A stretch of 64,000 nucleotides of DNA from a virus. Taxonomy: Duplodnaviria; Caudoviricetes. The notes under the pieces were generated by a model, which was not told where the DNA came from, made no database searches, and saw nothing but the letters and a program-made list of their open reading frames with translations. The first letter of the stretch is position 1. Each line of letters begins with the position of its first letter. Of this stretch, positions 3,910 to 64,000 are shown one piece after another. The position numbers and the translations under genes were made by a program. Location: positions 58,260-122,259 of the IMG/VR virus record IMGVR_UViG_3300038828_000048; one strand, 5' to 3'.

Positions 3910-4104
3910 ATGTATGAAATTAGAGATAATAAAATAGTAAAGATAGATTTAATAGAAGTTATTGATGATATAACATCATAATCTATAATAATTGAGATAC
4001 AATCTATAAATGATACTATCTCTAATTTAACAGATAAAGTAACTAAATTAAATGATGATTTAAAAATAGTCATTGATTTAGAGAATCAATTAAATAATAA
4101 ATAA
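3910..4104 (+). pseudogene. Small coiled-coil gene with in-frame TAA
   Basis: MYEIRDNKIVKIDLIEVIDDITS*SIIIEIQSIND...NNK*; internal TAA 3979-3981. Confidence 0.45.
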
Positions 4105-4114
4105 AGAAAAAGAA

Positions 4115-49706: not shown

Positions 49707-49790
49707 ATATATTAAATACAACTATATAGATTAGAATCTGGTATAAAAAAAATGTGGAGTTATTAAAAATAATAGATTAATGTAATCAAT

Positions 49791-50126
49791 ATGGATAACA
49801 AAGATAAAAGAGAACAATTGATAAAGATGTTGGAGAAAATATTGGGAGTAAAAGTATCCAACATCCATATTATAGATCTTGATAAACTTAAAATTAGTGA
49901 TGAACAAATAGAGGAGAGAATGATTGAATTACTCTCCTCTAATAATTCTAATGAGATTGAATTATTTCTAAACGAAGGATTAGCTAATATGGATAATTCC
50001 ATTAAAGAACGAGAATTATTAAAAATATATGATCTATTGGAAGAAAGAGGTGTTGATTCCCCAAATTCTCTAGGTCAAGATTTAATCATTAAAAAACTTA
50101 AAGAAATTACTGATAATAAAATATAA
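49791..50126 (+). CDS. Hypothetical protein
   Basis: 111 aa, last + strand gene before strand switch. Confidence 0.55.
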   Translation: MDNKDKREQLIKMLEKILGVKVSNIHIIDLDKLKISDEQIEERMIELLSSNNSNEIELFLNEGLANMDNSIKERELLKIYDLLEERGVDSPNSLGQDLIIKKLKEITDNKI

Positions 50127-50152
50127 TTAGAATATGATTAAAATGTACTTGA

Positions 50153-50794
50153 TTAAGCTGTAACCAAGAATAAATTGGGATTTAACGCATCAGCAATAAG
50201 TTCTTTATAAAATCCATTGCTATATATAGATATATCTTTATGTTCTATTCCAAATTCGGTTTCAAAAGTATCATATCTTAAACAAAACCTGAATTTTCCT
50301 CCTACTGGTATATTATTATACAAAATATGAATAGTAAATTTTTGAAACTCCACTCCCAATACATTCTTTAAATATTTTTTCAAGTGATTCATATAAGGGA
50401 TATGATATATTTTACCATTACTCATTAATTGTAAAAAAGTACTTGTAGTAAGTTTATTGCCATCAAGATCGTTTATAATATTGGATATGATAATTTTATG
50501 TAAATTTGATAATTTAATCAATCCATCATCTTTTTCTTCTCTTTCTTTTTTAACATCGTCAGGATCATGCCATATATTCTCGAATAAATCTTTTATATTA
50601 CATATAAATGCATCATCATAATATTGACTAATATTTCTATAATATATAGAGTCTGGAGTTCGATTAGAAAAATCATATTTGTTAAATATATTGAGAAAAT
50701 TCTTTTTTAATTTTATAAACAAAACATGAGTATCTATATCAAGATTTGCAATATGCCGTAAAGGAATTACTATATAATTATTATTCTTCTTCAT
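50153..50794 (-). CDS. Hypothetical protein
   Basis: 213 aa ORF. Confidence 0.6.
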   Translation of the reverse strand: MKKNNNYIVIPLRHIANLDIDTHVLFIKLKKNFLNIFNKYDFSNRTPDSIYYRNISQYYDDAFICNIKDLFENIWHDPDDVKKEREEKDDGLIKLSNLHKIIISNIINDLDGNKLTTSTFLQLMSNGKIYHIPYMNHLKKYLKNVLGVEFQKFTIHILYNNIPVGGKFRFCLRYDTFETEFGIEHKDISIYSNGFYKELIADALNPNLFLVTA

Positions 50795-51372
50795 TTTTTT
50801 AACATTACAATCGTTACATCTACATCCTTTAATTCTTCTTGAATAATGGTTTTTACATCTTTAAAACCTTTTTGTTGCAATTGAACATATTTTCTACTAG
50901 ATTCAGCATCCTTTATCCCAAATTCGTTAATATCCCAAATACCCCCAGCAATACCGCAACCAATTAAAGGTAATCCAATATGTTTACCCATAAATTTATG
51001 ATTAATCTTTCTCAGACATAATCTAAGAGCATTATAATCTAAATTAGGTCCTGGTCCATATTGTGTATAAGCATTTACTACGGTTAATTGATTACCTAAA
51101 TCATGCGTAACTACTCCAACGTAATCTTCTCTGAAACACCCAGACATCTTTAATTCATAATTCATATAATCAATCTGACCTAACTTATTTATATCACCTT
51201 TATATATAGGTGCTTCTAACTTAAATGTATCTGTACCAAAAGTTTTTTTCATTTGTAATGCTATACCTTTACCCTGTATATTAAAACAATTTATACCATG
51301 ACAAATCACATCAAAAGATCCTTCTAATGATAATTTAATTAGGTCTCCTTTAACACTATTGAATTTTCCCAT
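50791..51372 (-). CDS. Macro domain (ADP-ribose binding/hydrolase) protein
   Basis: KGDL, HGINC..GKGIA, VVNAYTQY, IGLPLIGCGIAGG. Confidence 0.9.
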   Translation of the reverse strand: MGKFNSVKGDLIKLSLEGSFDVICHGINCFNIQGKGIALQMKKTFGTDTFKLEAPIYKGDINKLGQIDYMNYELKMSGCFREDYVGVVTHDLGNQLTVVNAYTQYGPGPNLDYNALRLCLRKINHKFMGKHIGLPLIGCGIAGGIWDINEFGIKDAESSRKYVQLQQKGFKDVKTIIQEELKDVDVTIVMLKK

Positions 51373-51908
51373 AATTTTAAATGTTTATAAATTTTATTAA
51401 TTTTAATAATAAATTCTTCATAAGAATAATCTAATTTTATAATGTTACATTGTGTACAACAAGAAATTAAATTAGTTATTTCATAACCTTTAGAAGAATC
51501 TATTCTATCTAATCCTATTGTAGATATTTCACACCCACAATAATTACAAGGTTTTCCCCAAAAAGATTCAAATTCTTCTTTTGTTATATTCCATGAAAAA
51601 TTTCTTTTTTTAGCACTGCGTACATAAGAATTCCATCTCCCATTAATAGTAGTTTTTCTCCAAGTTTTACCAAGTTGTAAAATATAATCTTTATTCTCTG
51701 TGTAATATTTTTTCTTTTTAATACTATTCTCTTCTTTATGATCTTCTCGATATTTTTTTCTTAAAGTATTATAAGATGGTTCTCTTTTTCCATTTTCTAT
51801 TTTTTCACAATATTTACACCATGCTCTTAACCCATCTTTTCTTTTTTTACATCTATAAAAATCAGAAAATTGTTTTATAATCTTACACTTAGGACAAAAT
51901 TTACTCAT
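51339..51908 (-). CDS. HNH-type homing endonuclease
   Basis: CPKC...WCKYC zinc finger; CNYCG..GLDRIDSSKGY..NLISCC..CN..K. Confidence 0.85.
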   Translation of the reverse strand: MSKFCPKCKIIKQFSDFYRCKKRKDGLRAWCKYCEKIENGKREPSYNTLRKKYREDHKEENSIKKKKYYTENKDYILQLGKTWRKTTINGRWNSYVRSAKKRNFSWNITKEEFESFWGKPCNYCGCEISTIGLDRIDSSKGYEITNLISCCTQCNIIKLDYSYEEFIIKINKIYKHLKLWENSIVLKET

Positions 51909-51923
51909 AATGATTTTTTTTTA

Positions 51924-51953
51924 CAAAAATAGAAAAAATTACCTATTGTACAA
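51924..51953 (-). promoter_or_regulatory. Bacteroidetes -33/-7 promoter for HNH gene
   Basis: TTG-N19-TATTTTTG on - strand. Confidence 0.7.
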
Positions 51954-52061
51954 GGATTTTATAATTTTTATTTTTTTATAATTACATCCATGAGCTATAA
52001 CACTAAAAGAACCTGCAAGTGCAAGCTCTATTAAATCTCCTTGTATTTCTTGGTATTTCAT
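51939..52061 (-). pseudogene. Orphaned original 5' end of macro domain gene
   Basis: MKYQEIQGDLIELALAGSFSVIAHGCN aligns with MGKFNSVKGDLIKLSLEGSFDVICHGIN. Confidence 0.8.
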
Positions 52062-52062
52062 A

Positions 52063-52224
52063 TCAATTAGATGTATTTTTATTAAGATTACGTCTTATAT
52101 CATCAATTGCTTCTTCTTTAGCTTTAGATCTCTCTTCTTCTAAATACTTATCAAAGTTTTCAAATGTGATATGTTGAGTTCTACTTTTTACTTCAAGACT
52201 ATTTTTTATTTCTTGTTTATTCAT
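52063..52224 (-). CDS. Small hypothetical protein (53 aa)
   Basis: MNKQEIKNSLEVKSRTQHITFENFDKYLEEERSK...; fills gap exactly. Confidence 0.5.
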   Translation of the reverse strand: MNKQEIKNSLEVKSRTQHITFENFDKYLEEERSKAKEEAIDDIRRNLNKNTSN

Positions 52225-52551
52225 TTAATTTGATTCTTTATTTAATTCTAACCTTATTTCTTCTATACTATCAAAAGTTTCAACAGCAAATCTTACAGGA
52301 TTGTGACGATTATACAAAAATTCAAAATAAGCTGTATCCTTTACAGGTAAATCATACTTAAAATAATGGTATATTGGTTTACCTGATTTCTCTACAATAT
52401 CTTGATACTTATGTTCTAATTTTAAATACTTAACTATTGTTCCGTAATATAATATCTTCATATCGTGAGTAATAGAGATAGTATTTTTATCCTTTTTTAA
52501 CTCTGTGATAATTGATATAAATTTTTTAATTACTACATCTAAACTGTTCAT
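52225..52551 (-). CDS. Hypothetical protein
   Basis: 108 aa ORF in tightly packed operon. Confidence 0.6.
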   Translation of the reverse strand: MNSLDVVIKKFISIITELKKDKNTISITHDMKILYYGTIVKYLKLEHKYQDIVEKSGKPIYHYFKYDLPVKDTAYFEFLYNRHNPVRFAVETFDSIEEIRLELNKESN

Positions 52552-52554
52552 ATT

Positions 52555-53280
52555 TTAAGAATTTTGTTCTAATATTTCTAACCAACGATCTTTCAACATT
52601 TTAAAGTAAATATCGGGATCACAACCATAAGAACCAATTGACCACATATCATTTACTTCTATGTACTCAGTTTCTCCGTTTGCTAATAAACAAACATCTA
52701 AACTGTAAGCTACAGGTGGGTTATAATATTGATTTATAAAATGTTTGATAGCATTGTAACTAGGAGTTGCTAATGGATTAATTCCGTTGTAGTAACTCAT
52801 GTTTACTGCTTCACCTTTATATACAAATACTCTCCATTCAGAGATGATTTTTTCTTTGAAAGGTTTAGCACATAAATATGGACCATCAAAATCTACCAAT
52901 TCTGGATAGAGATTCCACTGAGATTGTTTAGTAAATACAGCTCCTGTGAATTTCTTTACATCTAAAGCTGGTTTAACAAAAACAGGGTACTTTAGTTCTC
53001 TTTTAAATGGTACAATCCACTGATCAAAAACTTGAGTAAGATTAGATGTCCATTGTAAAGGTGGTGGTGTTTTTATACCATACAAACCAAAGAAAAACTC
53101 CATGAATTCTATGGAACCGATTGGTACAGGGTCTAGTGGACGAATATATTCTCTATTAATCTGAGCTTGTTTCAGATCAGTTAAAGAAATTGTGTGTCCT
53201 GCATTAGTTGCTCCTAACCAACCTTTAAAACAATAATCAGAAATTATCTTACCACCAAGAGATTCTACTATTACATTCAT
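52555..53280 (-). CDS. ATP-grasp protein (R2K/DUF4343-like)
   Basis: PIGSIEF, PVFVKP..KKFTG, SEWRVFV, YSLDV, IEVND.WS.G.YG. Confidence 0.8.
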   Translation of the reverse strand: MNVIVESLGGKIISDYCFKGWLGATNAGHTISLTDLKQAQINREYIRPLDPVPIGSIEFMEFFFGLYGIKTPPPLQWTSNLTQVFDQWIVPFKRELKYPVFVKPALDVKKFTGAVFTKQSQWNLYPELVDFDGPYLCAKPFKEKIISEWRVFVYKGEAVNMSYYNGINPLATPSYNAIKHFINQYYNPPVAYSLDVCLLANGETEYIEVNDMWSIGSYGCDPDIYFKMLKDRWLEILEQNS

Positions 53281-53801
53281 ACTAATTGGATTTTATTGTT
53301 TGCAAATTCGATATCCCATTCTGTTTTCGGAAGTAGTGATTTGATATGTTCATCAAATGAATTACTTCTTAAGTATATTTTACCTTCTGTTGCACAGTAC
53401 ATACCTCCAGCGTGAAAACAGTTTTTCATATCTTCAATAGTAAATAACTTATCTTTTGAAAGTTCTTGATGTGCTTTGAAACCTTCGATATAACCGATCA
53501 TTGCACCAGGAGCTTGCGAACTCATTTTCAATTTACCAACAATAAATTTTTCAGCCATCTCCTCAACGCTATATTCATTGATAAGTTCTTCTACTTTTGA
53601 TAAAGGAATTGATTTAATTTTATAAAAAACTAACATATCCCCTGTAACAGTTTTTGTTGATTCTAACGGTTTAGTTGAATAAGTGATTTTCTTACAATCC
53701 TTACAAAAAGTATCAGATTCTATACTTTCTTTTGATAAATATCTAGTTATAGCTTTATCATTCAGACATATTTTAAAATCTCCTTTTAATTTCGGAATCA
53801 T
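53277..53801 (-). CDS. Hypothetical protein
   Basis: 174 aa ORF. Confidence 0.6.
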   Translation of the reverse strand: MIPKLKGDFKICLNDKAITRYLSKESIESDTFCKDCKKITYSTKPLESTKTVTGDMLVFYKIKSIPLSKVEELINEYSVEEMAEKFIVGKLKMSSQAPGAMIGYIEGFKAHQELSKDKLFTIEDMKNCFHAGGMYCATEGKIYLRSNSFDEHIKSLLPKTEWDIEFANNKIQLV

Positions 53802-53830
53802 CCACTATTACGTAATAAGTATCTGATATT

Positions 53831-54196
53831 TTAACTAACTTTGTTTGCATAATATGAATTTAAAAATGAGTAAATTGCTTCTACTACCCCACCTTTATTA
53901 AAATTTAATAAAACATCGGTAAATCTATAGTTAAACTCAGATTCACAAATCAAAGGTTTTATCTTAGTTAGTACTTCCATTATCCAATTCCAATCTGAAT
54001 GAAATTTTAAGGGATGAAAAGAAGGCTCGCATAGTGCATACCAATCATCTTCTACATAGTCTTGAAGTCTATTAGACCATTCTGACCAAGCTTTATCGGG
54101 TATTCTTACTACATTTCTACCATGTACCTTATCTTTTTTATAACCTAAAAACTCAGCACATCTTTTATTATACTCCGATGTTTCAATAGTATTCAT
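53831..54196 (-). CDS. Hypothetical protein (paralog of 54323..54706)
   Basis: FHSDWNWIMEV...IYSFLNSYY. Confidence 0.65.
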   Translation of the reverse strand: MNTIETSEYNKRCAEFLGYKKDKVHGRNVVRIPDKAWSEWSNRLQDYVEDDWYALCEPSFHPLKFHSDWNWIMEVLTKIKPLICESEFNYRFTDVLLNFNKGGVVEAIYSFLNSYYANKVS

Positions 54197-54369
54197 ATTA
54201 ATCTAGTTATATACACTTCAATAAAAGAAGTTTGTTTAAGTAAATTGGTTTTTAATTTTCTTGCTTTTTGTTCTGTAGAACATCTTGTAAATTTATACCT
54301 AGGTTTCCAATTACTTTTACCTCTATTCCAAATTATCCAACTGACAAAGTATGGTTTTGTTGTTTCCAT
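54193..54369 (-). CDS. Small hypothetical protein (58 aa)
   Basis: METTKPYFVSWIIWNRG...; stop overlaps next ATG. Confidence 0.4.
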   Translation of the reverse strand: METTKPYFVSWIIWNRGKSNWKPRYKFTRCSTEQKARKLKTNLLKQTSFIEVYITRLI

Positions 54370-54706
54370 AGTATGAATTTAGAAATGAATAGATTCTTTG
54401 TATTACTTCTTCTTTAGGTGTTCTAAATTGAAGATTCCACATGACTATGGTATTAGTATCCAAAGGTAAAGATTGTATCTTGTATATCACTTTCATAAGT
54501 GCATTCCAATCAGATGCAAAAGGAAGATAACCATCTCTACATAGTACCTTATCTTCTACTCTTACAGTACCGTTATTTCTATCTTTGTGTTCCCAATAAG
54601 AGTGTGTCCAATTACTAGGATTCTTACGCATACAAGGAGAAACTAATTCATAATCTAAAAATATAGCACATAGAAAATTAAATGTGTTTTTATCTTCTTT
54701 ACTCAT
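54323..54706 (-). CDS. Hypothetical protein (paralog of 53831..54196)
   Basis: FASDWNALMKV...IYSFLNSYY. Confidence 0.65.
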   Translation of the reverse strand: MSKEDKNTFNFLCAIFLDYELVSPCMRKNPSNWTHSYWEHKDRNNGTVRVEDKVLCRDGYLPFASDWNALMKVIYKIQSLPLDTNTIVMWNLQFRTPKEEVIQRIYSFLNSYYGNNKTILCQLDNLE

Positions 54707-54890
54707 GGTATATCCATTTTAATTTTGTTATTGAACTTTCAATTTGTTGATTCCATCTTTGTATTAACTCAGAGAAAGAATTTACACCCCAATATATTTT
54801 TTGCTCAATTAACTCATCATCTGTTAAAAACTTTATTTTGTTATAACATACTCTATTGTCTTTTAAACAAATACAAGTGTACTTATACAT
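54699..54890 (-). CDS. Hypothetical protein
   Basis: 63 aa ORF. Confidence 0.5.
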   Translation of the reverse strand: MYKYTCICLKDNRVCYNKIKFLTDDELIEQKIYWGVNSFSELIQRWNQQIESSITKLKWIYHE

Positions 54891-54896
54891 GATTAG

Positions 54897-54941
54897 TTAT
54901 TGATTATCAACTAAACTTCTGTACTGTATAAAACCACGGAA
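54897..54941 (-). pseudogene. thyX: Orphaned original 3' end of thyX
   Basis: FRGFIQYRSLVDNQ* right after GIY-YIG stop; matches current end FKGWNQYRKIL. Confidence 0.7.
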
Positions 54942-54942
54942 A

Positions 54943-55716
54943 TCAATATTTCCAAATAAAACCACCAGACGATTTACTTCTACCGTTAGCGCAATTAGAA
55001 ATACCTTTACCAGTGCTTTTTTCAGCTTCTTTAACTGAACTCCATTCCTTAATAAAATTATGTTGTAAATCATATTGTTTAACTTTTTTTGATTTATTAT
55101 TATTTGTTTTTAACCCTTTGTTCCAAGCTTTCTTTTCTTTTTTATATCTCAATTCACCAATAGGATTTTCAGAGTAACACCACCTATACCCAAAAGCAGA
55201 GTATCTTTTGTTTTCACAACAAGATGAGATTGTAGAACAAAATGTCTCATCTTTACCTATAAATCTACAAGCTTGAGCAATAGAATCGAAAACATGTAAT
55301 ATCTCTAGTGTTTCATACTCTAACATTCTAACAGATTTTTGTTTATCTATCCATGTTTTTGCTGGAGGTTTCACATTGTTTTTTATTGCATAAATTCTTT
55401 TTTTATTTTTTTGTTCATCTGTATTTTTTATACCTATTGTACTCCCAGCTTTTTTTGCTATATTATAAAGTGGGTAAAGTAAATCAAAATAATATTGTTC
55501 TTTTTCAATTAGTTTTTCTTTTTTACAATTTTCTATGATTTCAAATATAAAATTATCTATCCCATATTTATTAACAGCTCTCTGTAAAATTATGGAGTGG
55601 TGAGTTCCTTTTCTTAAAGATCTAAAATGTGTGTTTTTTCTTTGTTTTAAGTTGCAAGAACTACCAATATAAAAATCACCAGTTATATTATTTAATATTT
55701 TATAAATACCTATCAT
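54943..55716 (-). CDS. GIY-YIG homing endonuclease with NUMOD1-like repeats
   Basis: GIYKI..FYIGSS..R; FDSIAQA...SAFGYRW and WSSVKEA...SSGGFIWKY. Confidence 0.9.
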   Translation of the reverse strand: MIGIYKILNNITGDFYIGSSCNLKQRKNTHFRSLRKGTHHSIILQRAVNKYGIDNFIFEIIENCKKEKLIEKEQYYFDLLYPLYNIAKKAGSTIGIKNTDEQKNKKRIYAIKNNVKPPAKTWIDKQKSVRMLEYETLEILHVFDSIAQACRFIGKDETFCSTISSCCENKRYSAFGYRWCYSENPIGELRYKKEKKAWNKGLKTNNNKSKKVKQYDLQHNFIKEWSSVKEAEKSTGKGISNCANGRSKSSGGFIWKY

Positions 55717-55741
55717 AATTTTAGCACTTTGTATTATAGAA

Positions 55742-55749
55742 CAAAGATA
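55742..55749 (-). promoter_or_regulatory. Bacteroidetes -7 element for GIY-YIG gene
   Basis: TATCTTTG on - strand upstream of ATG 55716. Confidence 0.5.
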
Positions 55750-55772
55750 CTAAAATTATGATAAATTTAAAA

Positions 55773-56300
55773 TTATAGTTTTCCTTCTAATTCTAAAATT
55801 TTACGGTACTGATTCCAACCTTTAAAATTACCGTACCAATTAGAATTATCAACACATATTGCAACATGTTCTGTAGGTGATGCATGCCCTGATTCCACCA
55901 ACATATCATGTAATCGGATATCAGCTTCATAATCAATCTTTGGATTGTCTCCAAGTGTTTCATAGGAAATACGAGCACAACGAGCAACGCTTACCTTTAT
56001 CATTAATTGCTGTAACTCTTCATTTGTTAGACCTCTATCTGCATGTTTAAAACTGTCAAAACTTGAATGAGATAAATCTATACCATCACCAAAAGGTAAA
56101 TGATACTCTCCAGGTTGTAGCTTCTTAGGGGTACTCCCACTCATTACATCCCACATAGCTTCTGCTAGAGCCATCATGTGAATTTCAGCTTGACCTTTGT
56201 TTATAGATAACCATTTTTCTTCTGACCAATTACTTGTATCTATACCTTTTTCTGCAAGATATTTACTTACGTCTTTTCTGCTTCTAAATTGATGTTTCAT
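55773..56300 (-). CDS. thyX: Flavin-dependent thymidylate synthase, C-terminal fragment
   Basis: QAEIH..LA, HLPF, SVARCARISY, HASPTEHVA, GNFKGW.QYR. Confidence 0.8.
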   Translation of the reverse strand: MKHQFRSRKDVSKYLAEKGIDTSNWSEEKWLSINKGQAEIHMMALAEAMWDVMSGSTPKKLQPGEYHLPFGDGIDLSHSSFDSFKHADRGLTNEELQQLMIKVSVARCARISYETLGDNPKIDYEADIRLHDMLVESGHASPTEHVAICVDNSNWYGNFKGWNQYRKILELEGKL

Positions 56301-56586
56301 TTTTTCTTTTTATTTCTGATTCAAAACTATTATCCCAAATACACTCTCGTAAATTTTCTCCCTCATAAACTTCTATTGTACTTTGTCCATCATTTTCAGA
56401 AGGAGTAATAAATTCTTCTGTGTCAAAAAGAGTTTCGCATTCTATAAATTCTAATTCAGGAACATTACATAATTCAGCAGGTAAATAACCTTTTTCTAGT
56501 TTTTTAATAGCTTGTTGCATATTAGCAGCGTCCTCAAAATGAAGTCTTTGCCAAATTGTTACTTTTATATCTATATATTTACTCAT
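56284..56586 (-). CDS. Hypothetical protein (paralog of 57748..58044) inside split thyX
   Basis: K.TIW.R...DTEE...TIE...CIW.N shared. Confidence 0.65.
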   Translation of the reverse strand: MSKYIDIKVTIWQRLHFEDAANMQQAIKKLEKGYLPAELCNVPELEFIECETLFDTEEFITPSENDGQSTIEVYEGENLRECIWDNSFESEIKRKNETSI

Positions 56587-57025
56587 TTTTATAAATTTTT
56601 AAAATCCATTCTGCGTATTCAATTAAATCTTCTGGTCTTTGTCCTTTTGGTTGTTTAGTTACCCATAGCTCAAGATTTTCAGGTCTATTATCTGTTTTAT
56701 TTCCATTTTTATGATGAACAGACTCAAAAGAATGTAATTTTCGACCTAATATGTTTTCCATAACATACCTGTGTTCTAAATTCCAATCTCTAGTATTAAA
56801 ACCTTTTCCTTTTTCTACTTTTATAAGTACATAACCGTAAGAATTTATTTTTTTACTACCTAATTCTGATTCACGTTCTTTTGATATTCCGTTAGGATAA
56901 CGTCTATTTCTTTCGTGTTCTTCGTAATGTAGTTTTCTATAACAGTTTTTACATAAACCTCTGCTATGTACTTCTCTTTCACAACCATTGGAACAATTTC
57001 CTATTCTTGTTTTCTTTCTTCCCAT
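56579..57025 (-). CDS. HNH homing endonuclease (own start codon)
   Basis: MGRKK..C..GC....RGLC..CY; GYV..EHR.VME..LGR.L...E.VHHKNG.K.DNRPENLELW. Confidence 0.8.
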   Translation of the reverse strand: MGRKKTRIGNCSNGCEREVHSRGLCKNCYRKLHYEEHERNRRYPNGISKERESELGSKKINSYGYVLIKVEKGKGFNTRDWNLEHRYVMENILGRKLHSFESVHHKNGNKTDNRPENLELWVTKQPKGQRPEDLIEYAEWILKIYKNE

Positions 57026-57541
57026 AATTTTTACATTTAGTGCAAATGTAACTAAATTATTTAGAGTGTCAAGTTTTTCATCATCAATTTCGTAAATTGG
57101 ACACCTGAGTTCAAAAAAGTTAGAGAATCCTGTGGCCGATATTATAACTGTATGCCACATAAAAGGTTCAAGAAGTCTATTACAAAGTTGTTTTGTTACA
57201 TTAGAATTATGTAATCCTGTTGCAATTTGTACAGCAGAATTTCTTGCATCTAACCACCCTTCTACTAATTTATGAACGTTTTCTCCTGTTTCAGATTGAA
57301 AATATTCGTTCCCTTGCATACCTTTATGGTCTTTTTGCCATGCAATAGGAATAAAAGGATTTTCTTCAACCATTTTAACCATCTTTTCAAATGGTATTGC
57401 TCTACTACTTGCAGAATTTCTACTAAACATTCTATGAGTATTTAATTCCGCTAATATAAATCTGGGGAATGTTACTACCATTGTTGTTAATCGGTCACCT
57501 TGTGGATTAACACTATCTGCTAAAATTTTTGCTGAGATCAT
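56579..57541 (-). CDS. thyX: ThyX N-terminal fragment fused in frame to an HNH endonuclease
   Basis: PRFILAELNTHRMFSRNSASSRAIP, KQLCNRLLEPF, NFFELR, then HNH domain. Confidence 0.8.
   Translation of the reverse strand: MISAKILADSVNPQGDRLTTMVVTFPRFILAELNTHRMFSRNSASSRAIPFEKMVKMVEENPFIPIAWQKDHKGMQGNEYFQSETGENVHKLVEGWLDARNSAVQIATGLHNSNVTKQLCNRLLEPFMWHTVIISATGFSNFFELRCPIYEIDDEKLDTLNNLVTFALNVKIMGRKKTRIGNCSNGCEREVHSRGLCKNCYRKLHYEEHERNRRYPNGISKERESELGSKKINSYGYVLIKVEKGKGFNTRDWNLEHRYVMENILGRKLHSFESVHHKNGNKTDNRPENLELWVTKQPKGQRPEDLIEYAEWILKIYKNE
57043..57072 (-). promoter_or_regulatory. Bacteroidetes -33/-7 promoter for internal HNH gene
   Basis: TTG-N19-TACATTTG on - strand, just upstream of ATG 57025. 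Confidence 0.7.
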
Positions 57542-57542
57542 T

Positions 57543-57782
57543 TTAATATTTTAAACTTGTTTTTAAATAATTATTCAAATCCATATCTGGTAAACACCTA
57601 GTTACATATTTCCAATTACCTTCTTTGGTTACCATCCAGATTTGACCTTGATATTTAGAAAAACAATCCCTACCACCATTTGCAACTAAGAATCTTCGTA
57701 ATTCAGCAAATGTAGTAGGGTGTTTTTCTCCTTTATCTTTTACCATACTATCTTTGGGTTCTATCTGTAATACCATCGACAT
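57543..57782 (-). CDS. Hypothetical protein
   Basis: 79 aa ORF. Confidence 0.5.
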   Translation of the reverse strand: MSMVLQIEPKDSMVKDKGEKHPTTFAELRRFLVANGGRDCFSKYQGQIWMVTKEGNWKYVTRCLPDMDLNNYLKTSLKY

Positions 57783-58044
57783 TATTCCAAATACATTGTA
57801 AACCTACTTTACCTTCTTGGTACTCCATCAATTCTATGGTAGCATTACCACCATTATCTTCAACCGATAATTCTTCTTCAGTATCGTAGAGAACAGAGAA
57901 TTGACTGTTAATATCATCATCAGGATAACCTATATCGTTTGGGGATAAACCTTCTTGTAATTTATCTAAAACTTCTTCTTTGGTAATCTTGGATTCATCT
58001 AGTTCTATTCTACCCCAGATTGTACATTTATAATGTATCTCCAT
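57748..58044 (-). CDS. Hypothetical protein (paralog of 56284..56586)
   Basis: 98 aa, acidic. Confidence 0.6.
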   Translation of the reverse strand: MEIHYKCTIWGRIELDESKITKEEVLDKLQEGLSPNDIGYPDDDINSQFSVLYDTEEELSVEDNGGNATIELMEYQEGKVGLQCIWNNVDGITDRTQR

Positions 58045-58069
58045 AGTTAATTACTATAGTTAAATCTTT

Positions 58070-58276
58070 TTAAAAGTGCTCGTTGAGAAGTATCAAGAGC
58101 ATCATACATTTTTCACAAATTGATAAATGACTAGCATACCAAAATTCATCTATGAATTCTTTTGATTCTTTTAATCCATTTTTAATTTTACTATCATGTA
58201 TCAGTTTTACAGCATTTAACTTACGATTATGATCAAAGTGATCATCCATTACTTCAATAAATGTTTTTTGATTCAT
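58070..58276 (-). CDS. Ribosomal L7/L12 C-terminal-like small protein
   Basis: KLNAVKLI......GLKESKEFID. Confidence 0.45.
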   Translation of the reverse strand: MNQKTFIEVMDDHFDHNRKLNAVKLIHDSKIKNGLKESKEFIDEFWYASHLSICEKCMMLLILLNEHF

Positions 58277-58277
58277 T

Positions 58278-59129
58278 TTAAATTATTTTTTCGTTAACTA
58301 ATATTGTTCTCACTTTCTCTACAAGCTCTTCAATTGTACCTGAATTATCTATTACATAATCCCAATCAGTTACGTGATCAAGAGCTACTTCTGATTCATG
58401 CTGTGGTTTTCTACTACAAGGTGTTAAACAATCTAATGAAGAATCATCTACGCAAACACAAGTACTGCTATATCTGTTCACTCTAATAGTGATACCATTT
58501 CGTTTCTTCACCGCTTCTAACTCGTTGGGGAATCTCATGTCCGCTATGATCCAATTTGGATATCTATTTTCATAAAGACCTGTATCATTTCTCCAATTTT
58601 CTCTATAAGGACTACCTTTATAATCACTCATTAAAGCATTTACCCATATATCATGATGAAGTTGCTTTCTGAAAAGTTCAGTACCTATAAATTGAAGTAA
58701 TTTTCTTGGTGTATAAGATTCTTTATAAGCTGTTTGATGATTAGTTTTCAACTCTTCTTCATATTTTTCCTTATTGCAAGCTTCGTTAATCATGATGGGA
58801 GATTCTCCAGTATAATAAAAACCATTAGCATATCCGTATCTGACCCATTCTTCCCCTAATTCTTTATTCTTAAATTCTTGATTTTCCAATTCTTCTCTAG
58901 TGCAACCAATGAGTAAGCAAACTATGTCTTTCAACTTACTTGCAAAAGATACTTGTTTCCAACCAGACATTTGATAACCAAAATCGAATTTATCAAAATC
59001 TTTTAAACTATAATTTGAAAAAGATATTCTACCAGATTCTACTCTATCCTTCCAAACTAAATATTGAATTATTGAACCAACTGTGTTTTTCCCACTCCCT
59101 ATCTTACCGCTCAATGCTATTAATGCCAT
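58278..59129 (-). CDS. Deoxynucleoside monophosphate kinase
   Basis: P-loop SGKIGSGK, SFASKLK, TPRKLLQFIGTE..R, D.RFPNE, HESE.ALD. Confidence 0.9.
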   Translation of the reverse strand: MALIALSGKIGSGKNTVGSIIQYLVWKDRVESGRISFSNYSLKDFDKFDFGYQMSGWKQVSFASKLKDIVCLLIGCTREELENQEFKNKELGEEWVRYGYANGFYYTGESPIMINEACNKEKYEEELKTNHQTAYKESYTPRKLLQFIGTELFRKQLHHDIWVNALMSDYKGSPYRENWRNDTGLYENRYPNWIIADMRFPNELEAVKKRNGITIRVNRYSSTCVCVDDSSLDCLTPCSRKPQHESEVALDHVTDWDYVIDNSGTIEELVEKVRTILVNEKII

Positions 59130-59139
59130 GTTTTTTGTT

Positions 59140-59409
59140 TTAATAAGTTAAATTTAATTCTTCTTCTAATTCTTTTATCAAATCTGGTACATCTTCTTTA
59201 AGTACAAATCTGCTGAACAGGAAGTATTGATAAGGAAAATTACCTGATAGATCTATTTCTTCTACTTAAATACCTAATTCTCCACCTATCTGATGTATTT
59301 TATCAAAAGCAGATACAGTATATGTTTTACTTCTTTTTATCCAGAGAGAAGCTGGAAAATCTGCTGGTCTATTTGCATCATTTATACAAACAACTTCTTT
59401 ACCTATCAT
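59140..59409 (-). pseudogene. Small phage gene with single in-frame TAA
   Basis: MIGKEVVCINDANRP...ELGI*VEEIDLSGNFPYQYF...; TAA at 59266-59268. Confidence 0.55.
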
Positions 59410-59749
59410 ACTTTATTCTTGTTATAACACCATTTAATAGTTCATCTAAAGAAAGATAACCAACACCAATGAACGGTATTTTACCTTCTTCTTCTACGTT
59501 CCAATCCCATTGAAATCTGATACTAAGTCTGTTTAAAGAATCTAATTTAAAATGGTTAAACTCTTTAAAACCTACAACACTTTTACTAAGTATTTCAGAA
59601 ACGATTTTATGAGCATTTAAATCTTCTTCAGACCATTCATTTTTATTTGGGTAAGTGTACCCTACATTTTGAAAACTTAGGTTTGGAAACTCTTTTTGAA
59701 TTTTTATTAACTCACTGTATTGATCTTGATTGATTCTGTTGATTGTCAT
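59399..59749 (-). CDS. Hypothetical protein
   Basis: 116 aa ORF. Confidence 0.6.
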   Translation of the reverse strand: MTINRINQDQYSELIKIQKEFPNLSFQNVGYTYPNKNEWSEEDLNAHKIVSEILSKSVVGFKEFNHFKLDSLNRLSIRFQWDWNVEEEGKIPFIGVGYLSLDELLNGVITRIKYDR

Positions 59750-59751
59750 AC

Positions 59752-59973
59752 CTAGATGATTTTACCTTCTTTTATTTTTAATTGTATTAAATCTGATATA
59801 GATACACTGTAATACTTACTTGTTTTTGGTAATTCAGAAATTATCAAATCTCTTTTAACATCTAACATAAAAATACCACCTTGAGTCTGTATCCTATTTT
59901 TTTCATCTAACCACTCTTTAACTTTTTTATCCACGTATTGATTTACATCTTGATCAGTTTTAAGTATTATCAT
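59752..59973 (-). CDS. Hypothetical protein
   Basis: 73 aa ORF. Confidence 0.55.
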   Translation of the reverse strand: MIILKTDQDVNQYVDKKVKEWLDEKNRIQTQGGIFMLDVKRDLIISELPKTSKYYSVSISDLIQLKIKEGKII

Positions 59974-59983
59974 CAGTAAATAT

Positions 59984-60385
59984 TTATTTGATTAATTTTA
60001 AAGCTTTGAATAGACCTGCTTCTAATGCTTCTTCATAGGAAATAAACCATTCATTATCATTATTTTTAGATAAGGTAATTAAATCTTTATCAGCATGTTG
60101 TATTTGAACTTCCCAAGTAATAAAATCTGTTATTGGAGTTATTATTATTGGAGTAGGTAATTCTCGCAACCATTTTTGTAATAAACCTTGTGTTGGCGCT
60201 GAATAATTATCCCACTCATTGTGATTATATTCATCGTTATCTCCATCTTCACCACTACTAAATTGTATTGCACTATCTTCCAAATAACAATAAAATGTTT
60301 TGTAGTCAAATCCTTTTTCTTTAGCTAATACTGCTGTATTAAAATCTATTAATTCTTCTTGCATAATTTTATTATTATTTATCAT
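59984..60385 (-). CDS. Hypothetical phage protein
   Basis: TA.LAKEKGF...APTQ.LLQKWLRE...SYEEALE.GL. Confidence 0.7.
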   Translation of the reverse strand: MINNNKIMQEELIDFNTAVLAKEKGFDYKTFYCYLEDSAIQFSSGEDGDNDEYNHNEWDNYSAPTQGLLQKWLRELPTPIIITPITDFITWEVQIQHADKDLITLSKNNDNEWFISYEEALEAGLFKALKLIK

Positions 60386-60535
60386 AAACTATTTAATTAA
60401 ATTAGTTAAATATAAAGTATCTCCTACATCAAAATTACAATTAGCTATAAATGAATAATCATTTTTATCATAATATATACAAGTTGCGTCATCATATACT
60501 TCAGCACGATCAATATACATCTTTTAATTGTACCT

Positions 60536-60627
60536 ACTTAACAGCGTATATAAGAAATGGCACATAAACATTCGTGCTAAATTTCAAGTTTCTGCAAGTG
60601 CCACTTCTCATATACGCAAACCGAGCA
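60536..60627 (+). repeat. attC-like site 1 (R' lacks TT)
   Basis: ACTTAAC-AGCGTATATAAGAAATGGCAC...GTGCCACTTCTCATATACGC-AAACC-G(--)AGCA; near copy of site 2. Confidence 0.7.
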
Positions 60628-60633
60628 CCAATA

Positions 60634-61020
60634 CTACCTTTCGTGCGGATAAGGAACATATCTAAAATCTCTTATTGAAGAATGGTAAAGATTTTGAATT
60701 TCCCCGTCTAATGGATGATAAAATTTGCCAGATTCATTTGCAGTATAACAGAATGTAGAATCTAATATATTCCCACCATCTCTATTGCAAGAACCTCCAC
60801 CAAAATAATACCTTGTCCCTCCAATACTTTCGTGTAGTGTTTCTTTAACACCAATTACAAATATATTACCAGTACATTCAATAATAATATCTCCAACATT
60901 CGGTTTCCATTTTTTCTGTATCTCATCATTAAAAATACATTCAAGTAAATAATTTTTACTTAACCCTTTGAATGTATCAGGTAAGTAAAATTCTAAATCT
61001 TCTTTTTTAAATTCTTTCAT
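60634..61020 (-). CDS. Cassette 1 hypothetical protein
   Basis: 128 aa between sites 1 and 2. Confidence 0.65.
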   Translation of the reverse strand: MKEFKKEDLEFYLPDTFKGLSKNYLLECIFNDEIQKKWKPNVGDIIIECTGNIFVIGVKETLHESIGGTRYYFGGGSCNRDGGNILDSTFCYTANESGKFYHPLDGEIQNLYHSSIRDFRYVPYPHER

Positions 61021-61052
61021 ATTATTTAATTTTTGTTAATAATCCGTACTGG

Positions 61053-61146
61053 TGCTAACAGCGTATATGAGAAATGACACATAAACATTCGTGCTAAATT
61101 TCAGCATCCTACAAGAGCCACTTCTCATATATGCAAAACGTTATAA
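61053..61146 (+). repeat. attC-like site 2 (intact)
   Basis: TGCTAAC-AGCGTATATGAGAA...TTCTCATATATGC-AAAAC-GTTATAA. Confidence 0.75.
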
Positions 61147-61153
61147 GCAAGTG

Positions 61154-61852
61154 CTACATTTCGTTTCCAAATAGAGTTCCTGCTTGTAAACCTTTTTCTT
61201 TTCTTTTTCCCCACCCACTATTTAGATTATCTTTTGGATATGGAATAATTTTGTGTTTAAGTTCAGATATTATACGCTTTCTGTCTTTTTTGTGAAGTAT
61301 GTACAAATATCTGTGCTTTTTTTTCATTTCAATCCTCTCATAATTTGGGTCAATTTTTATTAGCTCATCAGTTTTAATCGTTCCATATAGAGCGACAACA
61401 CTTCTTGGGTGCATTACCTCACCATTTATCTTATGTAAGTAGCCCTTAATTAGCATAGTATTGTTACCTTGATAAAGCCAATTAGTTGCTTGATAAATTA
61501 TTCCTAAATGGTCTTGCATTGGGTCGCTATAACTTATCAAAACTTTTACTTCTGTATTTTTTCTTAACCAATCAAATGTTTTACCTAAAAAATAACTTTC
61601 ACTATTTTTTGGTGCTTCATCAATCAGCCAAAGTCTTGTAAGTTCTAAAACTTCGCTATTTTCTAAATTAGATGTAATTGATTTAACTGTTTGTCTTCCA
61701 ACAGGAAATCCATATACAGCAACACCAATCAATTCATCTTTATCAAACAAACCAATAGCGTATCTGCAAGAAGTCCATTTGTGCGAGTAATGGTTTTCTA
61801 TAATTAGCTTCTTAGCTACATTCTTATCAATTAAATCAATTCTATAATCCAT
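61154..61852 (-). CDS. Cassette 2: Mom-like adenine-modification (GNAT fold) protein
   Basis: ENHYS, LIGVAVYG.P, LELTRL, NSESYF, LISYSDP..H.G.IYQATNW.Y.G. Confidence 0.75.
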   Translation of the reverse strand: MDYRIDLIDKNVAKKLIIENHYSHKWTSCRYAIGLFDKDELIGVAVYGFPVGRQTVKSITSNLENSEVLELTRLWLIDEAPKNSESYFLGKTFDWLRKNTEVKVLISYSDPMQDHLGIIYQATNWLYQGNNTMLIKGYLHKINGEVMHPRSVVALYGTIKTDELIKIDPNYERIEMKKKHRYLYILHKKDRKRIISELKHKIIPYPKDNLNSGWGKRKEKGLQAGTLFGNEM

Positions 61853-61943
61853 ATTTTAAATTTTTATTTTCCCACCGCACAAAAAAGAAAAGAAAAAGGT
61901 TTCGTCTTTCAATTCAAGTTTTGTGCTATAAATCCGCACCAGC

Positions 61944-62035
61944 TTATAACAGCAGTTTGGCAAAAGCTGCCATTAAAAATTCGTGCGAAAATTGAGCATC
62001 CGTTAGGCAGCCTTCGCATGTACTTGATGTTATGA
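61944..62035 (+). repeat. attC-like site 3 (chimeric right end)
   Basis: TTATAAC-AGCAGTTTGGCAAAAGCTGCC...GGCAGCCTTCGC-ATGTACTTGAT-GTTATGA. Confidence 0.7.
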
Positions 62036-62039
62036 CACA

Positions 62040-62276
62040 TCAAGATTCAAGCTGTTCTAATGTCATTTTTAATCCTGATGCAACTTCATATTCTTCTATA
62101 TCAATATGATTTTTTATCATTAATTTTAATTGTTTACAATATTCTTCTATCGTGCAATTATCCATTGAACACATTGATTCGTAATTAATTCTGCCTATAA
62201 ATCTTTTTACATCTGGATTGTTATTTTTGTCAAGAAGAATAGATGATGTGGTTTTAAAATACAATTTATTATTCAT
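62040..62276 (-). CDS. Cassette 3 gene B, hypothetical
   Basis: 78 aa; IEEYE.AS.LK UVR-like tail. Confidence 0.55.
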   Translation of the reverse strand: MNNKLYFKTTSSILLDKNNNPDVKRFIGRINYESMCSMDNCTIEEYCKQLKLMIKNHIDIEEYEVASGLKMTLEQLES

Positions 62277-62683
62277 GATAATATTAATTCTTTGCCAGTA
62301 AGAGAAAAGTATAAGTTTTGAAGCTGATGCACATACTCAATATTGTGTGGAAGAAAAAATAATTGATCACCTGTAACGTTATTTACTTCTCTTAATAAAA
62401 ACGATGTATAAGAATGTAAAGATTTAACAGATTCTAATTTATATCCATCTTCTATTTCAATTTCATAAGTTGTGTCATATTCGTTTTCATATTCGATAAA
62501 CCCTAATTTTTTAAACCATTCTTTTGTTAGTCCTATCGGATAATGGCAACTTCTATCTATTTGATTTTCTTGATTTGTTAAAATAGACAACAACTTATTA
62601 TCAACTATTTTAATTTTTACAATTAGGTCAGCTCTTAAATATTTAATTATGCTTCCTATTCTTAATTCATTTAATGGTATCAT
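62273..62683 (-). CDS. Cassette 3 gene A, hypothetical (NELRIG family)
   Basis: NELRIG...PI.LT.EW...GF...YVHQLQNLYFSLTG.EL. Confidence 0.7.
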   Translation of the reverse strand: MIPLNELRIGSIIKYLRADLIVKIKIVDNKLLSILTNQENQIDRSCHYPIGLTKEWFKKLGFIEYENEYDTTYEIEIEDGYKLESVKSLHSYTSFLLREVNNVTGDQLFFLPHNIEYVHQLQNLYFSLTGKELILS

Positions 62684-62716
62684 TTTTATTTAATTTAGTG
62701 GTTAATAATTGACGTG

Positions 62717-62780
62717 TCATAACAGTGTATAAGACGATATTTTCTTTCAGAAAAACATCGCTTATACTTGTACGTTATGT
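62717..62780 (+). repeat. attC-like site 4 (intact, extrahelical A)
   Basis: TCATAAC-AGT-GTATAAG(A)CGAT...ATCGCTTATAC-TTGTAC-GTTATGT. Confidence 0.75.
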
Positions 62781-63155
62781 GACAGATAAGGTTAGTTCTT
62801 CACCTATTGATGAATAGAAATTTTGTAATTCATGGAAATATTTAAAATAAGTATCCAATGTTCGCCAATTACGAATACAATGAACTCCAAGCGGTAATGT
62901 ATAGCCTAATAAATACCTATGTCTTTCATCAGACCACTTTATAAACCAATTACTATCTTGTCTCTTAAATATAACCATGTCTCCGCCGTTTATTTCTTCA
63001 AATCCAAAATTTAATAACCACTCTTCAGTAATAGGAATAGGATTATCTGGTTTCATTCCTTTCTCCATATTAGATAAGTAATGTCCAGTTATTATCAAAT
63101 CTCTACCGTCACTTTCTAAATAATTTCCGATTCTTAATTCATTTTTATTTATCAT
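62775..63155 (-). CDS. Cassette 4 hypothetical (NELRIG family, paralog of 62273..62683)
   Basis: NELRIGN...PIPITEEWLLNFGF...HELQNFY; stop lies in the GTTA box. Confidence 0.7.
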   Translation of the reverse strand: MINKNELRIGNYLESDGRDLIITGHYLSNMEKGMKPDNPIPITEEWLLNFGFEEINGGDMVIFKRQDSNWFIKWSDERHRYLLGYTLPLGVHCIRNWRTLDTYFKYFHELQNFYSSIGEELTLSVT

Positions 63156-63190
63156 TTCAATTTTATTTTAATACGTTAATTTTATCCGTC

Positions 63191-63255
63191 ACATAAGAAT
63201 GTACATAACGACATGATCTTATCAGATCACGATCGTATGTACTTTTACGTTAGCA
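63191..63255 (+). repeat. attC-like site 5 (AAC mutated to AAG)
   Basis: ACATAAG-AAT-GTACATA(A)CGA..TGATCT-TATC-AGATCA..TCGTATGTAC-TTTTAC-GTTAGCA. Confidence 0.7.
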
Positions 63256-63259
63256 AACA

Positions 63260-63463
63260 TTAAGAATAACTGATACCCATAATTGGCATCCATTCTTTTA
63301 TGTCGCTTTTTGGTACTTTGACCGTTCCGCTCCACGTCATCACAGTCCATTCGTTACCCATCAAAAAACCTCTTGTCCAGAAATCTTGATGATGAGATGT
63401 GTGTTTTACAAATACATTGTAGCCGTGTATCGGCTCTTCTAATTCGGTTTTTTTAATTTCCAT
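63260..63463 (-). CDS. Cassette 5 hypothetical protein
   Basis: 67 aa, ends EWMPI. Confidence 0.6.
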   Translation of the reverse strand: MEIKKTELEEPIHGYNVFVKHTSHHQDFWTRGFLMGNEWTVMTWSGTVKVPKSDIKEWMPIMGISYS

Positions 63464-63476
63464 AATAATTAACGTT

Positions 63477-63512
63477 TGCTAACACAAGCTATGCATGTAC
63501 TTGACGTTGGCA
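63477..63512 (+). repeat. attC-like site 6 (internally deleted)
   Basis: TGCTAAC-22 nt-GTTGGCA. Confidence 0.6.
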
Positions 63513-63516
63513 GCAA

Positions 63517-63735
63517 TTAAAAGAGCGACAGCTTATCCGTCAAATACTTTTTAATTATTGCCTTTTGTTCATCTGTGGTGTCGGACAAATCCATTTGCAC
63601 ACCATTAATAATTTGAGCAATGTAATTCCAACGTTTTTTCATCGGGGCTTCATTTATGCCTTCAATTACATCTGCAATGTGGACGGTAACATCCATATTT
63701 CTGTCAATTCTTACTTCAATATCTATTGTTTCCAT
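63517..63735 (-). CDS. Cassette 6 hypothetical protein
   Basis: 72 aa between sites 6 and 7. Confidence 0.6.
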   Translation of the reverse strand: METIDIEVRIDRNMDVTVHIADVIEGINEAPMKKRWNYIAQIINGVQMDLSDTTDEQKAIIKKYLTDKLSLF

Positions 63736-63752
63736 TTGAAAATATTAACTGC

Positions 63753-63884
63753 TGCCAACAATATATTGCCAATAGTGGGGCAGACGTGCCACAATTGAGC
63801 ATTGGTACTACTATTTAACTTTGTGCTGATGATGGGCAGTAGTGCCTTGAAACCCCACCATCGGCAATACTCGGAACGTTATTT
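63753..63884 (+). repeat. attC-like site 7 (long, intact)
   Basis: TGCCAAC..TATTGCCAATAGTGGGG...CCCCACCATCGGCAATA-CTCGGAAC-GTTATTT. Confidence 0.7.
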
Positions 63885-64000
63885 CTCTATCTTTAAAAGT
63901 GGGCCGCCCATGAGCAGACGGCCCTATAACAACAATAAAAAACAACCGTTTATGTGGGGCCACCATTAATAGCCCAATACCGAAAAGCCAACTCCGTATA

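Follow-up and report, generated by a model that had tools for sequence, protein, structure and literature searches.

The stretch of DNA analysed here, referred to as the window, comprises the last 64 kb of a viral contig of 122,259 bp (IMG/VR record IMGVR_UViG_3300038828_000048; G+C content of about 28%) and ends in an array of small gene cassettes whose own two ends are complementary to each other except for a mismatch at one fixed position, position 11, which is the subject of this work. The contig carries an open reading frame (ORF) of 6,786 aa, typical of crAss-like phages, and its completeness is rated at about 72%. From about 60.5 kb of the window to the contig end, imperfect hairpins bounded by ...AAC and GTT... 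alternate with small ORFs on the minus strand (Table 1). A cassette is taken to start with the G of GTT and to end with the C of AAC, positions being counted from that G. The hairpins are clustered, with seven in 3.4 kb and three more at the contig start, and exhibit the features of integron attC sites, namely, a spacer of 2–3 nt after AAC and another of 5–6 nt before GTT, an outer (R) and an inner (L) stem, and a variable loop. An Rfam search of window positions 49000–64000 returned no family. Positions 63365–63484 of the window are repeated at the contig start, where the repeat is followed by a different hairpin and different cassettes; the array therefore extends over both ends of the contig, with cassette C5 occurring in two contexts.

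Table 1. Hairpins and cassettes of the array, in window positions; the bases given for position 11 are those of the left and right cassette arms.
Feature	Positions	Strand	Description
Hairpin A	60528–60622	+	Orphan left R arm ending in AAC 60540–60542; central imperfect palindrome 60543–60622; right GTT cut to G 60623
Cassette C1	60623–61059	-	ORF 60634–61020, 128 aa, no Pfam match; position 11: A 60631, C 61049
Hairpin B, central part	61060–61139	+	80 nt; A×C mismatch 15 nt after AAC
Cassette C2	61140–61950	-	ORF 61154–61852, Mom-like DNA-modification protein; position 11: A 61150, C 61940
Hairpin C, central part	61951–62028	+	78 nt
Cassette C3	62029–62723	-	ORFs 62040–62276 and 62273–62683; position 11: A 62039, C 62713
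Hairpin D, central part	62724–62773	+	50 nt; spacers 3 nt after AAC and 6 nt before GTT; one bulged A on the plus strand
Cassette C4	62774–63197	-	ORF 62775–63155, stop codon inside the GTTA core; position 11: A 62784, C 63187
Hairpin E, central part	63198–63248	+	51 nt
Cassette C5	63249–63483	-	ORF 63260–63463; position 11: A 63259, C 63473; only 11 mismatched
Hairpin F	63484–63505	+	22 nt only; hybrid or scar, the first 9 nt from the hairpin of C5 itself being joined to the last 13 nt (3' end) from another hairpin
Cassette C6	63506–63759	-	ORF 63517–63735; position 11: A 63516, C 63749; only 11 mismatched
Hairpin G, central part	63760–63877	+	118 nt; site 122018–122137 in contig coordinates
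Cassette C7, start	63878–64000		Cut by the contig end; array resumes at contig bases 1–1387 (three more hairpins, two cassettes)

In all six of the cassettes C1–C6, pairing between the two ends stops at positions 14–16 and position 11 is an A on the left arm opposite a C on the right arm, as an earlier note on this DNA had described. Other mismatches are few and are also those that had been listed there, that is, position 10 of C2, whose mismatches at 10 and 11 belong to the AA versus TG class, position 1 of C4, whose right end reads AAG and not AAC, and the TT missing from the GTT of C1; with this TT restored, the arms of C1 differ only at 11 and also at 15, while in C3 position 11 is the sole mismatch within 15 nt. 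Two more cassettes at the contig start (contig positions 199–415 and 535–1324) follow the same rule. On the minus strand, the mismatch becomes the anticipated G·T wobble, and folding of C6 closes with 15 contiguous pairs on that strand and with 10 pairs, a gap at position 11, and four pairs on the plus strand. The length of the complementarity held, but its description as about twice the classical 7-bp R box overstated the contrast, since Vibrio cassettes already pair over 9–13 nt at their own ends.

For all counts below, A/G at position 11 means an A on one arm and a G on the reverse complement of the other arm. A loose criterion (at most three mismatches in 15 nt) performed no better on the real genome than on shuffled sequence (182 matches versus 182–214) and was replaced by stricter criteria blind to position 11, whereas a first hairpin finder was too noisy and served only as a secondary filter. 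With at most one mismatch outside position 11, the real genome yielded 11 end pairs, seven of them carrying A/G at 11; 20 shuffles yielded one to eight such pairs each, with A/G at 11 in none or one.

The rule extends well beyond this contig. A scan of IMG/VR with a degenerate hairpin pattern gave 114 viral stretches and, with position 11 excluded when choosing end pairs, A/G was found there in 47 of 56 pairs. Among loci fetched through a recombinase (see below), in which the selection of cassettes was blind to positions 10, 11, and 15, it was present in 157 of 179 phage cassettes and in 62 of 72 bacterial cassettes. Position 11 is A/G in 83–88% of about 250 cassettes chosen without regard to it, the remainder looking like chance pairs, and in practice no real cassette has a Watson–Crick pair there. 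The neighbouring positions are Watson–Crick in 80–100% and covary, as had been claimed, so that position 11 stands apart from them in the larger set too. Covariation includes positions 4–10 and 12–14, with 119 distinct 6-mers at positions 4–9 and all four pair types at positions 6–9; among the first 10 pairs of the R stem, only GTTA/TAAC is conserved, the others being free. About one-quarter of the cassettes have a further mismatch, A versus T, at position 10, and about three-quarters have a T at position 12. Moreover, GTT...AAC pairs matched at positions 1–9 and carrying A/G at 11 are paired in 80–85% at positions 12–14 and in 61% at 15 before falling to background, whereas those matched at 1–9 without A/G at 11 are at background (about 30%) from position 10 onward. 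The phages with arrays of this family include crAss-like, Polaribacter-type, and very large ones, and such arrays are also carried by Bacteroidota and some other bacteria. An assembly artefact was rejected as an explanation, given that the arms recur in independent samples; for instance, the arms of C4 recur in viral contig L038. This contig (G008) contains two tyrosine recombinases, whose position relative to its array could not be established.

One of the pattern matches, a complete 78-kb contig with terminal repeats (L005), encodes a tyrosine recombinase of 269 aa whose start codon lies 43 nt from the GTT of the first cassette, and 210 relatives of this protein, with 55–67% identity, were found in viral contigs. 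In 63 of the 80 viral loci kept, which are essentially all those with enough upstream DNA, a rule-obeying array ends 30–90 nt before the start of the recombinase gene, always in the same orientation, and the array starts at an attI beside this gene. The attI-like DNA of these recombinase-linked phage arrays ends in a conserved ..TATATATAATA followed by GTTA, directly before the first cassette. In loci L123–L202, where this region covers 30–90 nt before the recombinase start codon, TTGATTT-type or GGTT/AGTTA repeats are often present further upstream. Bacterial relatives of the recombinase (39–52% identity) come mostly from Bacteroidota but also from Nitrospirae and a Desulfitobacterium chromosome, and the arrays that follow them obey the same position-11 rule. 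An integron-like array in Desulfitobacterium, a member of the Firmicutes, is unusual. In Desulfitobacterium sp. Sab5 (L246, 7638–8795) and in an Aequorivita metagenome-assembled genome (L242, 7662–8819), the array-adjoining recombinases lie in ORFs of 385 aa, with about 115 residues ahead of the Xer-like core that may represent an N-terminal extension. Another contig, L203 (CAZKYX010000012.1), exhibits the phage-type arrangement, with the array upstream of the recombinase, and its Gammaproteobacteria label or its binning is doubtful.

The recombinase, of about 260 aa, aligns end to end with the archaeal XerA (4A8E, E = 1e-38). Compared with the integron integrase VchIntIA, it has 31 residues where IntI has 79, being about 48 residues shorter across the I2 region, and therefore lacks the integron-specific insertion. 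In agreement with this, recombinases beside related arrays scored 158–216 bits against TIGR02249, below its integron-integrase cut-off of 265, and matched it in two stretches that skip the insertion. The earlier suggestion of a distinct, non-canonical site family is hence supported by the link of these sites to an Xer-like recombinase devoid of the IntI insertion, and by the lack of a fixed mismatch in Vibrio integron arrays. The hairpins of the window belong with these recombinase-linked arrays: hairpins A/B, H1, and H2 are 85–95% identical to hairpins within them, and hairpin A in particular is 86–93% identical to hairpins of the integrase-linked arrays L164, L132, L173, and L202.

Several observations bear on the mobility of the cassettes. 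An identical cassette of 916 nt is the first after the recombinase in L167 and the sixth in L184, and C3 occurs in other contexts in an independent activated-sludge study, where the homology breaks exactly before G 62029 (three contexts). The two phage arrays L167 and L184 (IMGVR_UViG_3300042502_000862 and 3300044732_001408) are related, with identical 40-nt junction hairpins and the same cassettes in a different order. In the source sample of the window, both continuations past C5 are present, branching at 63492/63493, and the depth of C5 is about double. Crossover mapping by means of identical cassettes in different contigs was mostly uninformative, as most pairs were near-duplicate contigs or arrays with identical hairpins.

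When an array is written with the A of position 11 on the left arm, the recombinase lies on the GTT (attI) side, in phages and bacteria alike. The orientation of the cassette genes differs between the two: in phages, the wobble (bottom) strand carries the ORFs (113 versus 2), whereas in bacteria they are found on the opposite one (48 versus 5). Since position 11 tracks the side of the recombinase despite the opposite gene orientation, the asymmetry must be tied to the recombination site and not to the coding strand or the transcript. This bears on the idea that the paired ends form a stem with a G·U wobble that has a role in the transcript, for example as a processing stem, a terminator, or a translation signal, for which it could be adduced that the wobble strand is the coding strand in the window and in phage arrays and that stop codons are often located in or beside the left arm. 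Nevertheless, bacterial arrays have their genes on the other strand (48 of 53 cassettes with a clear ORF) with position 11 still tied to the recombinase side, and the positions of the stop codons vary (2–4, 12–14, 14–16, and 15–17) without ever including 11, so that a role as an expression signal appears highly improbable. RNA processing stems were rejected in view of the different gene orientation in phage and bacterial arrays. The bottom strand of classical attC sites is recognized by a longer spacer beside AAC and by extra bases on the arm opposite AAC (PMC5027507); these criteria identify the minus strand of the window as the bottom one, which in phages is also, unusually, the coding strand.

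When sites were reconstituted from a cassette's own two arms and folded with DNA parameters, the bottom strand was the more stable in 133 of 134 phage sites and in 29 of 31 bacterial sites. The means were -22.6 and -18.2 kcal/mol for reconstituted sites, in comparison with -15.3 and -12.7 kcal/mol for the hybrid sites present in the arrays. The arms alone give -11.9 kcal/mol on the wobble strand and -10.7 kcal/mol on the other one, while a fully paired stem would reach about -14 to -15 kcal/mol; as a full pair would add 2–3 kcal/mol, the wobble is kept at the expense of stability. A similar pattern is seen in the inner stem, with an A×C on the top strand at 15 nt from AAC in 73 of 109 phage sites and at 10 nt in 40 of 109. 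These are the first disruptions of this stem and lie roughly where classical sites have extrahelical bases. In classical attC sites, bottom strands are enriched in G:T mispairs (1.24 versus 0.39 per site), which aid strand selectivity (Nivina et al., PMC5027507). Long own-end pairing and enrichment of G:T on the bottom strand were therefore already partly known (PMC5027507), and what is new with respect to the attC literature is the fixed position of the wobble and its near-absolute conservation.

The A and C could also be devoid of any function. They might have been inherited from a common arm ancestor, or else have arisen by deamination biased towards one strand if the DNA is frequently single-stranded, since a change from C to T on an exposed strand would convert G:C into G·T there. 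Some arm subfamilies indeed have a common outer sequence, such as ..AATACTAC with ..AGTACGGAT. However, mutational bias would scatter wobbles over the stem, whereas the arms are highly diverse, as seen in the 6-mers at positions 4–9, and yet the wobble is found at one position, essentially never reverting, and is kept in spite of the greater stability of a full pair. A neutral or mutational origin is unlikely because the arms are diverse and the position is fixed, and the absence of function as a whole seems a poor explanation.

The evidence leans, with modest confidence, towards position 11 being a mark under selection, located in the R stem of the bottom strand when folded, that would serve strand choice or recognition. 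This function is inferred, whereas the analysis did establish the anatomy, conservation, and covariation of the sites, their link to the recombinase and to site polarity, and the bias in stability between the strands. This agrees with the earlier proposal of strand choice or recombinase contact, considering the stability bias of reconstituted phage sites and an asymmetry that follows the polarity of the site instead of the direction of the genes. Each junction is an attC-like hairpin consisting of ...AAC, a short spacer, an imperfect stem-loop, a longer spacer, and GTT... The R stem of a cassette's own site would be split by a crossover between the G and the TT of GTT, its halves being left at opposite ends of the cassette and reunited only in the excised circle. 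This stem has a fixed composition of 10 Watson–Crick pairs, an obligatory T·G on the bottom strand at position 11, and three to four further pairs, the pair at 12 being mostly T·A. The wobble would then lie at the outer border of an Xer-type binding arm of 11 bp (positions 2–12), the two arms having the forms TTA......AT and TTA......GT, and might be read by the Xer-like recombinase of about 260 aa, without the IntI-specific insertion. Together with the inner-stem wobbles 10 and 15 nt after AAC, it may make the bottom strand the better-folding and recognisable substrate. Moreover, with the long cassette-specific stem the excised circle would form a far better hairpin (about -22.6 kcal/mol) than the integrated hybrid sites (about -15.3 kcal/mol). 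A tentative and clearly less probable extension of this reading is that the fixed G·T wobbles at 11 and at inner-stem positions +10 and +15 replace the extrahelical bases of classical sites and define strand, register, and arm for Xer-type enzymes lacking the insertion.

Since the recombinase is Xer-like and without the IntI insertion, the cassette ends might instead be duplex half-sites of 11 bp of the Xer type (TTA......AT and TTA......GT), in which A:T versus G:C at position 11 sets polarity, deciding in which direction insertion occurs and at which arm binding or cleavage begins, in a manner similar to the unequal arms of dif; the mismatch would then be a by-product of comparing the two arms. 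What is conserved is indeed the identity of the bases and not their mere failure to pair, one arm always having an A and the second a G, with T at position 12 in about 75%, and the attI beside the recombinase, with its conserved end before GTTA, is a duplex-type site. The cassette arm also resembles the XerD arm of E. coli dif, TTATGTTAAAT. On the other side, the three fixed positions (R11, L+10, and L+15) are all G·T on one strand and A×C on the other, the wobble strand folds better in 133 of 134 sites, a bias that would be meaningless for duplex recognition, and covariation keeps positions 12–15 paired past the mismatch, which argues for a stem. The duplex half-sites are thus a close rival, rather unlikely as the whole explanation, and they are not mutually exclusive with recognition of a folded strand.

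Other points weigh against a mark read in the folded bottom strand. The energy gap that stems from position 11 itself is small, about 1.2 kcal/mol, and the recombinase, lacking the insertion by which IntI holds extrahelical bases, might act on duplex DNA. Two hybrid hairpins, hairpin F (63484–63505) and the 3' half of hairpin D in run X7, do not fit a single crossover between the G and the TT of GTT. Furthermore, the classical baseline comprises two Vibrio arrays only, and within the 122 kb of the window contig there is no recombinase and there are damaged cores (60623, 63195–63197, and the hybrid hairpin F).

As regards the window itself, no match to a tyrosine recombinase (PF00589) was obtained in the 122-kb contig, which is about 72% complete and has both ends inside the array, so that the gap could hold one. 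Nor was an attI beside a recombinase gene found in the window, where the left end of the array is hairpin A with its orphan arm. With at least two clustered attC-type sites and no integrase nearby, the array corresponds to the clusters of integrase-less attC sites known as CALINs; with the recombinase absent, it is the orphan form (CALIN type) of an integron-like system that relies on an Xer-type enzyme. The damage consists of the deletion of TT from the GTT of hairpin A (60623), AAG in place of AAC at the end of C4 (63195–63197), and a partnerless arm at 60528–60542. The damaged cores and the absence of the recombinase suggest that the array is partly locked in, and it is possibly partly fossil.

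The product of the C2 gene is a Mom-like protein (PF25680, E = 1e-61), and the gene is 75% identical at the nucleotide level to the Mom gene of Polaribacter phage P12002L. The C2 Mom cassette and the methyltransferase cassettes of L005 and of Polaribacter phage P12002S have in common a conserved leader of about 90 nt, extending from the right arm to the start codon (window 61853–61950; L005 3736–3842; L003 about 4015–4114), which reads ..caaaaaagaaaagaaaaagg..aagttttgtgct.taaa..cgcaccag.. on the plus strand. This leader may serve DNA-modification cassettes as a common promoter or regulatory element.

According to the prevailing view, integron recombination depends on an insertion through which the integrase holds flipped-out bases of the folded attC site. 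In the large family of arrays described here, the recombinase lacks this insertion, and the sites bear another mark, very strictly conserved, in the form of a wobble pair at a constant position. If the enzyme reads the wobble, this would provide a simple, testable rule for finding sites, including those that standard integron finders missed in P12002L, would help to explain how the correct strand and orientation are chosen, and would bear on the origin of integrons from Xer systems. If the wobbles replace extrahelical bases, they would show how a plain Xer enzyme recombines folded single-stranded sites, and the system would likely be an intermediate between dif/Xer and integrons, used by phages to trade anti-defence genes. 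Such arrays would offer lytic phages a route to exchange small genes such as the Mom-like anti-restriction gene of C2.

Among known systems, HUH/Y1 elements (IS200/IS605, REP/RAYT) and T4-type promoter-stem-loop cassettes likewise present imperfect hairpins between small genes in a variable phage region. In contrast with IS200/IS605 and REP/RAYT, there is one hairpin per junction and not two per element, and a search of the contig for a Y1 transposase (PF01797) gave no match; a Y1/HUH hairpin transposon was rejected on both grounds. Promoter stem-loops of the T4 type were also rejected, as the AAC/GTT cores and the cassette-specific end pairing follow integron logic. Xer/dif systems (XerA, XerC/D, XerH) have the same arms of about 11 bp that start with TTA and differ in their outer bases. 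However, Xer systems use a single chromosomal site of 11-6-11 bp, whereas the arms described here are 20–130 nt apart around a hairpin, flank mobile cassettes, and occur in arrays; a single site of 28–30 bp, made up of two 11-bp arms and a centre of 6–8 bp, was not found.

CALINs have been published in virulent phages, including Polaribacter phage P12002L (Qi et al. 2023, PMC9892861), and the window likewise holds an orphan cluster of attC-type sites in a lytic-type phage with DNA-modification genes, sharing with P12002L the C2 Mom cassette and the hairpin type. The two P12002L sites tested in that study (attC1 and attC2) are none of the hairpins seen here, its sites were not tied to an Xer-like recombinase, and the position-11 rule was not described (PMC9892861). 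In P12002L (L002, 3860–5540), the Mom and methyltransferase cassettes have a much longer own-end pairing, consisting of 8 bp, a small internal loop at positions 9–13 (CAAT versus TCTGT), and 10–15 more pairs (AATTTTTAAAAACCG); the hairpins at 4642–4691 and 5486–5537 of L002 are not among attC1 and attC2 (PMC9892861). The literature searched yielded no account of the position-11 rule, nor any of Xer-type arrays from phages, Bacteroidota, or Patescibacteria, the matches being limited to the CALIN paper and general work on integrons.

The closest relatives are the attC sites of integrons (59-base elements, class 1 attC, and the Vibrio cholerae repeats, VCRs, of Vibrio), with the same AAC/GTT core, an outer R and an inner L stem, and unequal unpaired spacers. 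In integrons too, one half of the outer R stem comes from the cassette's own start and the arrays adjoin an attI and a tyrosine recombinase. The enrichment of G:T on the bottom strand (PMC5027507) and the occurrence of the same cassettes in different positions are also common to both systems. They differ in the recombinase, which lacks the IntI-specific insertion here, and in its gene, which is co-directional with the cassette genes, the phage genes being on the bottom strand. They also differ in the inner stem, in which fixed wobbles mostly occupy the places of the extrahelical bases of classical sites, and in the R stem, which is fixed at 14–15 bp with an obligatory wobble at 11. In the phage-borne integron of Vibrio anguillarum and the large array of Vibrio sp. 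HDW18, the cassette ends pair contiguously over 9–13 nt and then stop, and neither array showed a fixed mismatch or resumed pairing. Judging by this small baseline, the arrangement of 10 pairs, a wobble, and three to four further pairs is specific to the Xer-type family.

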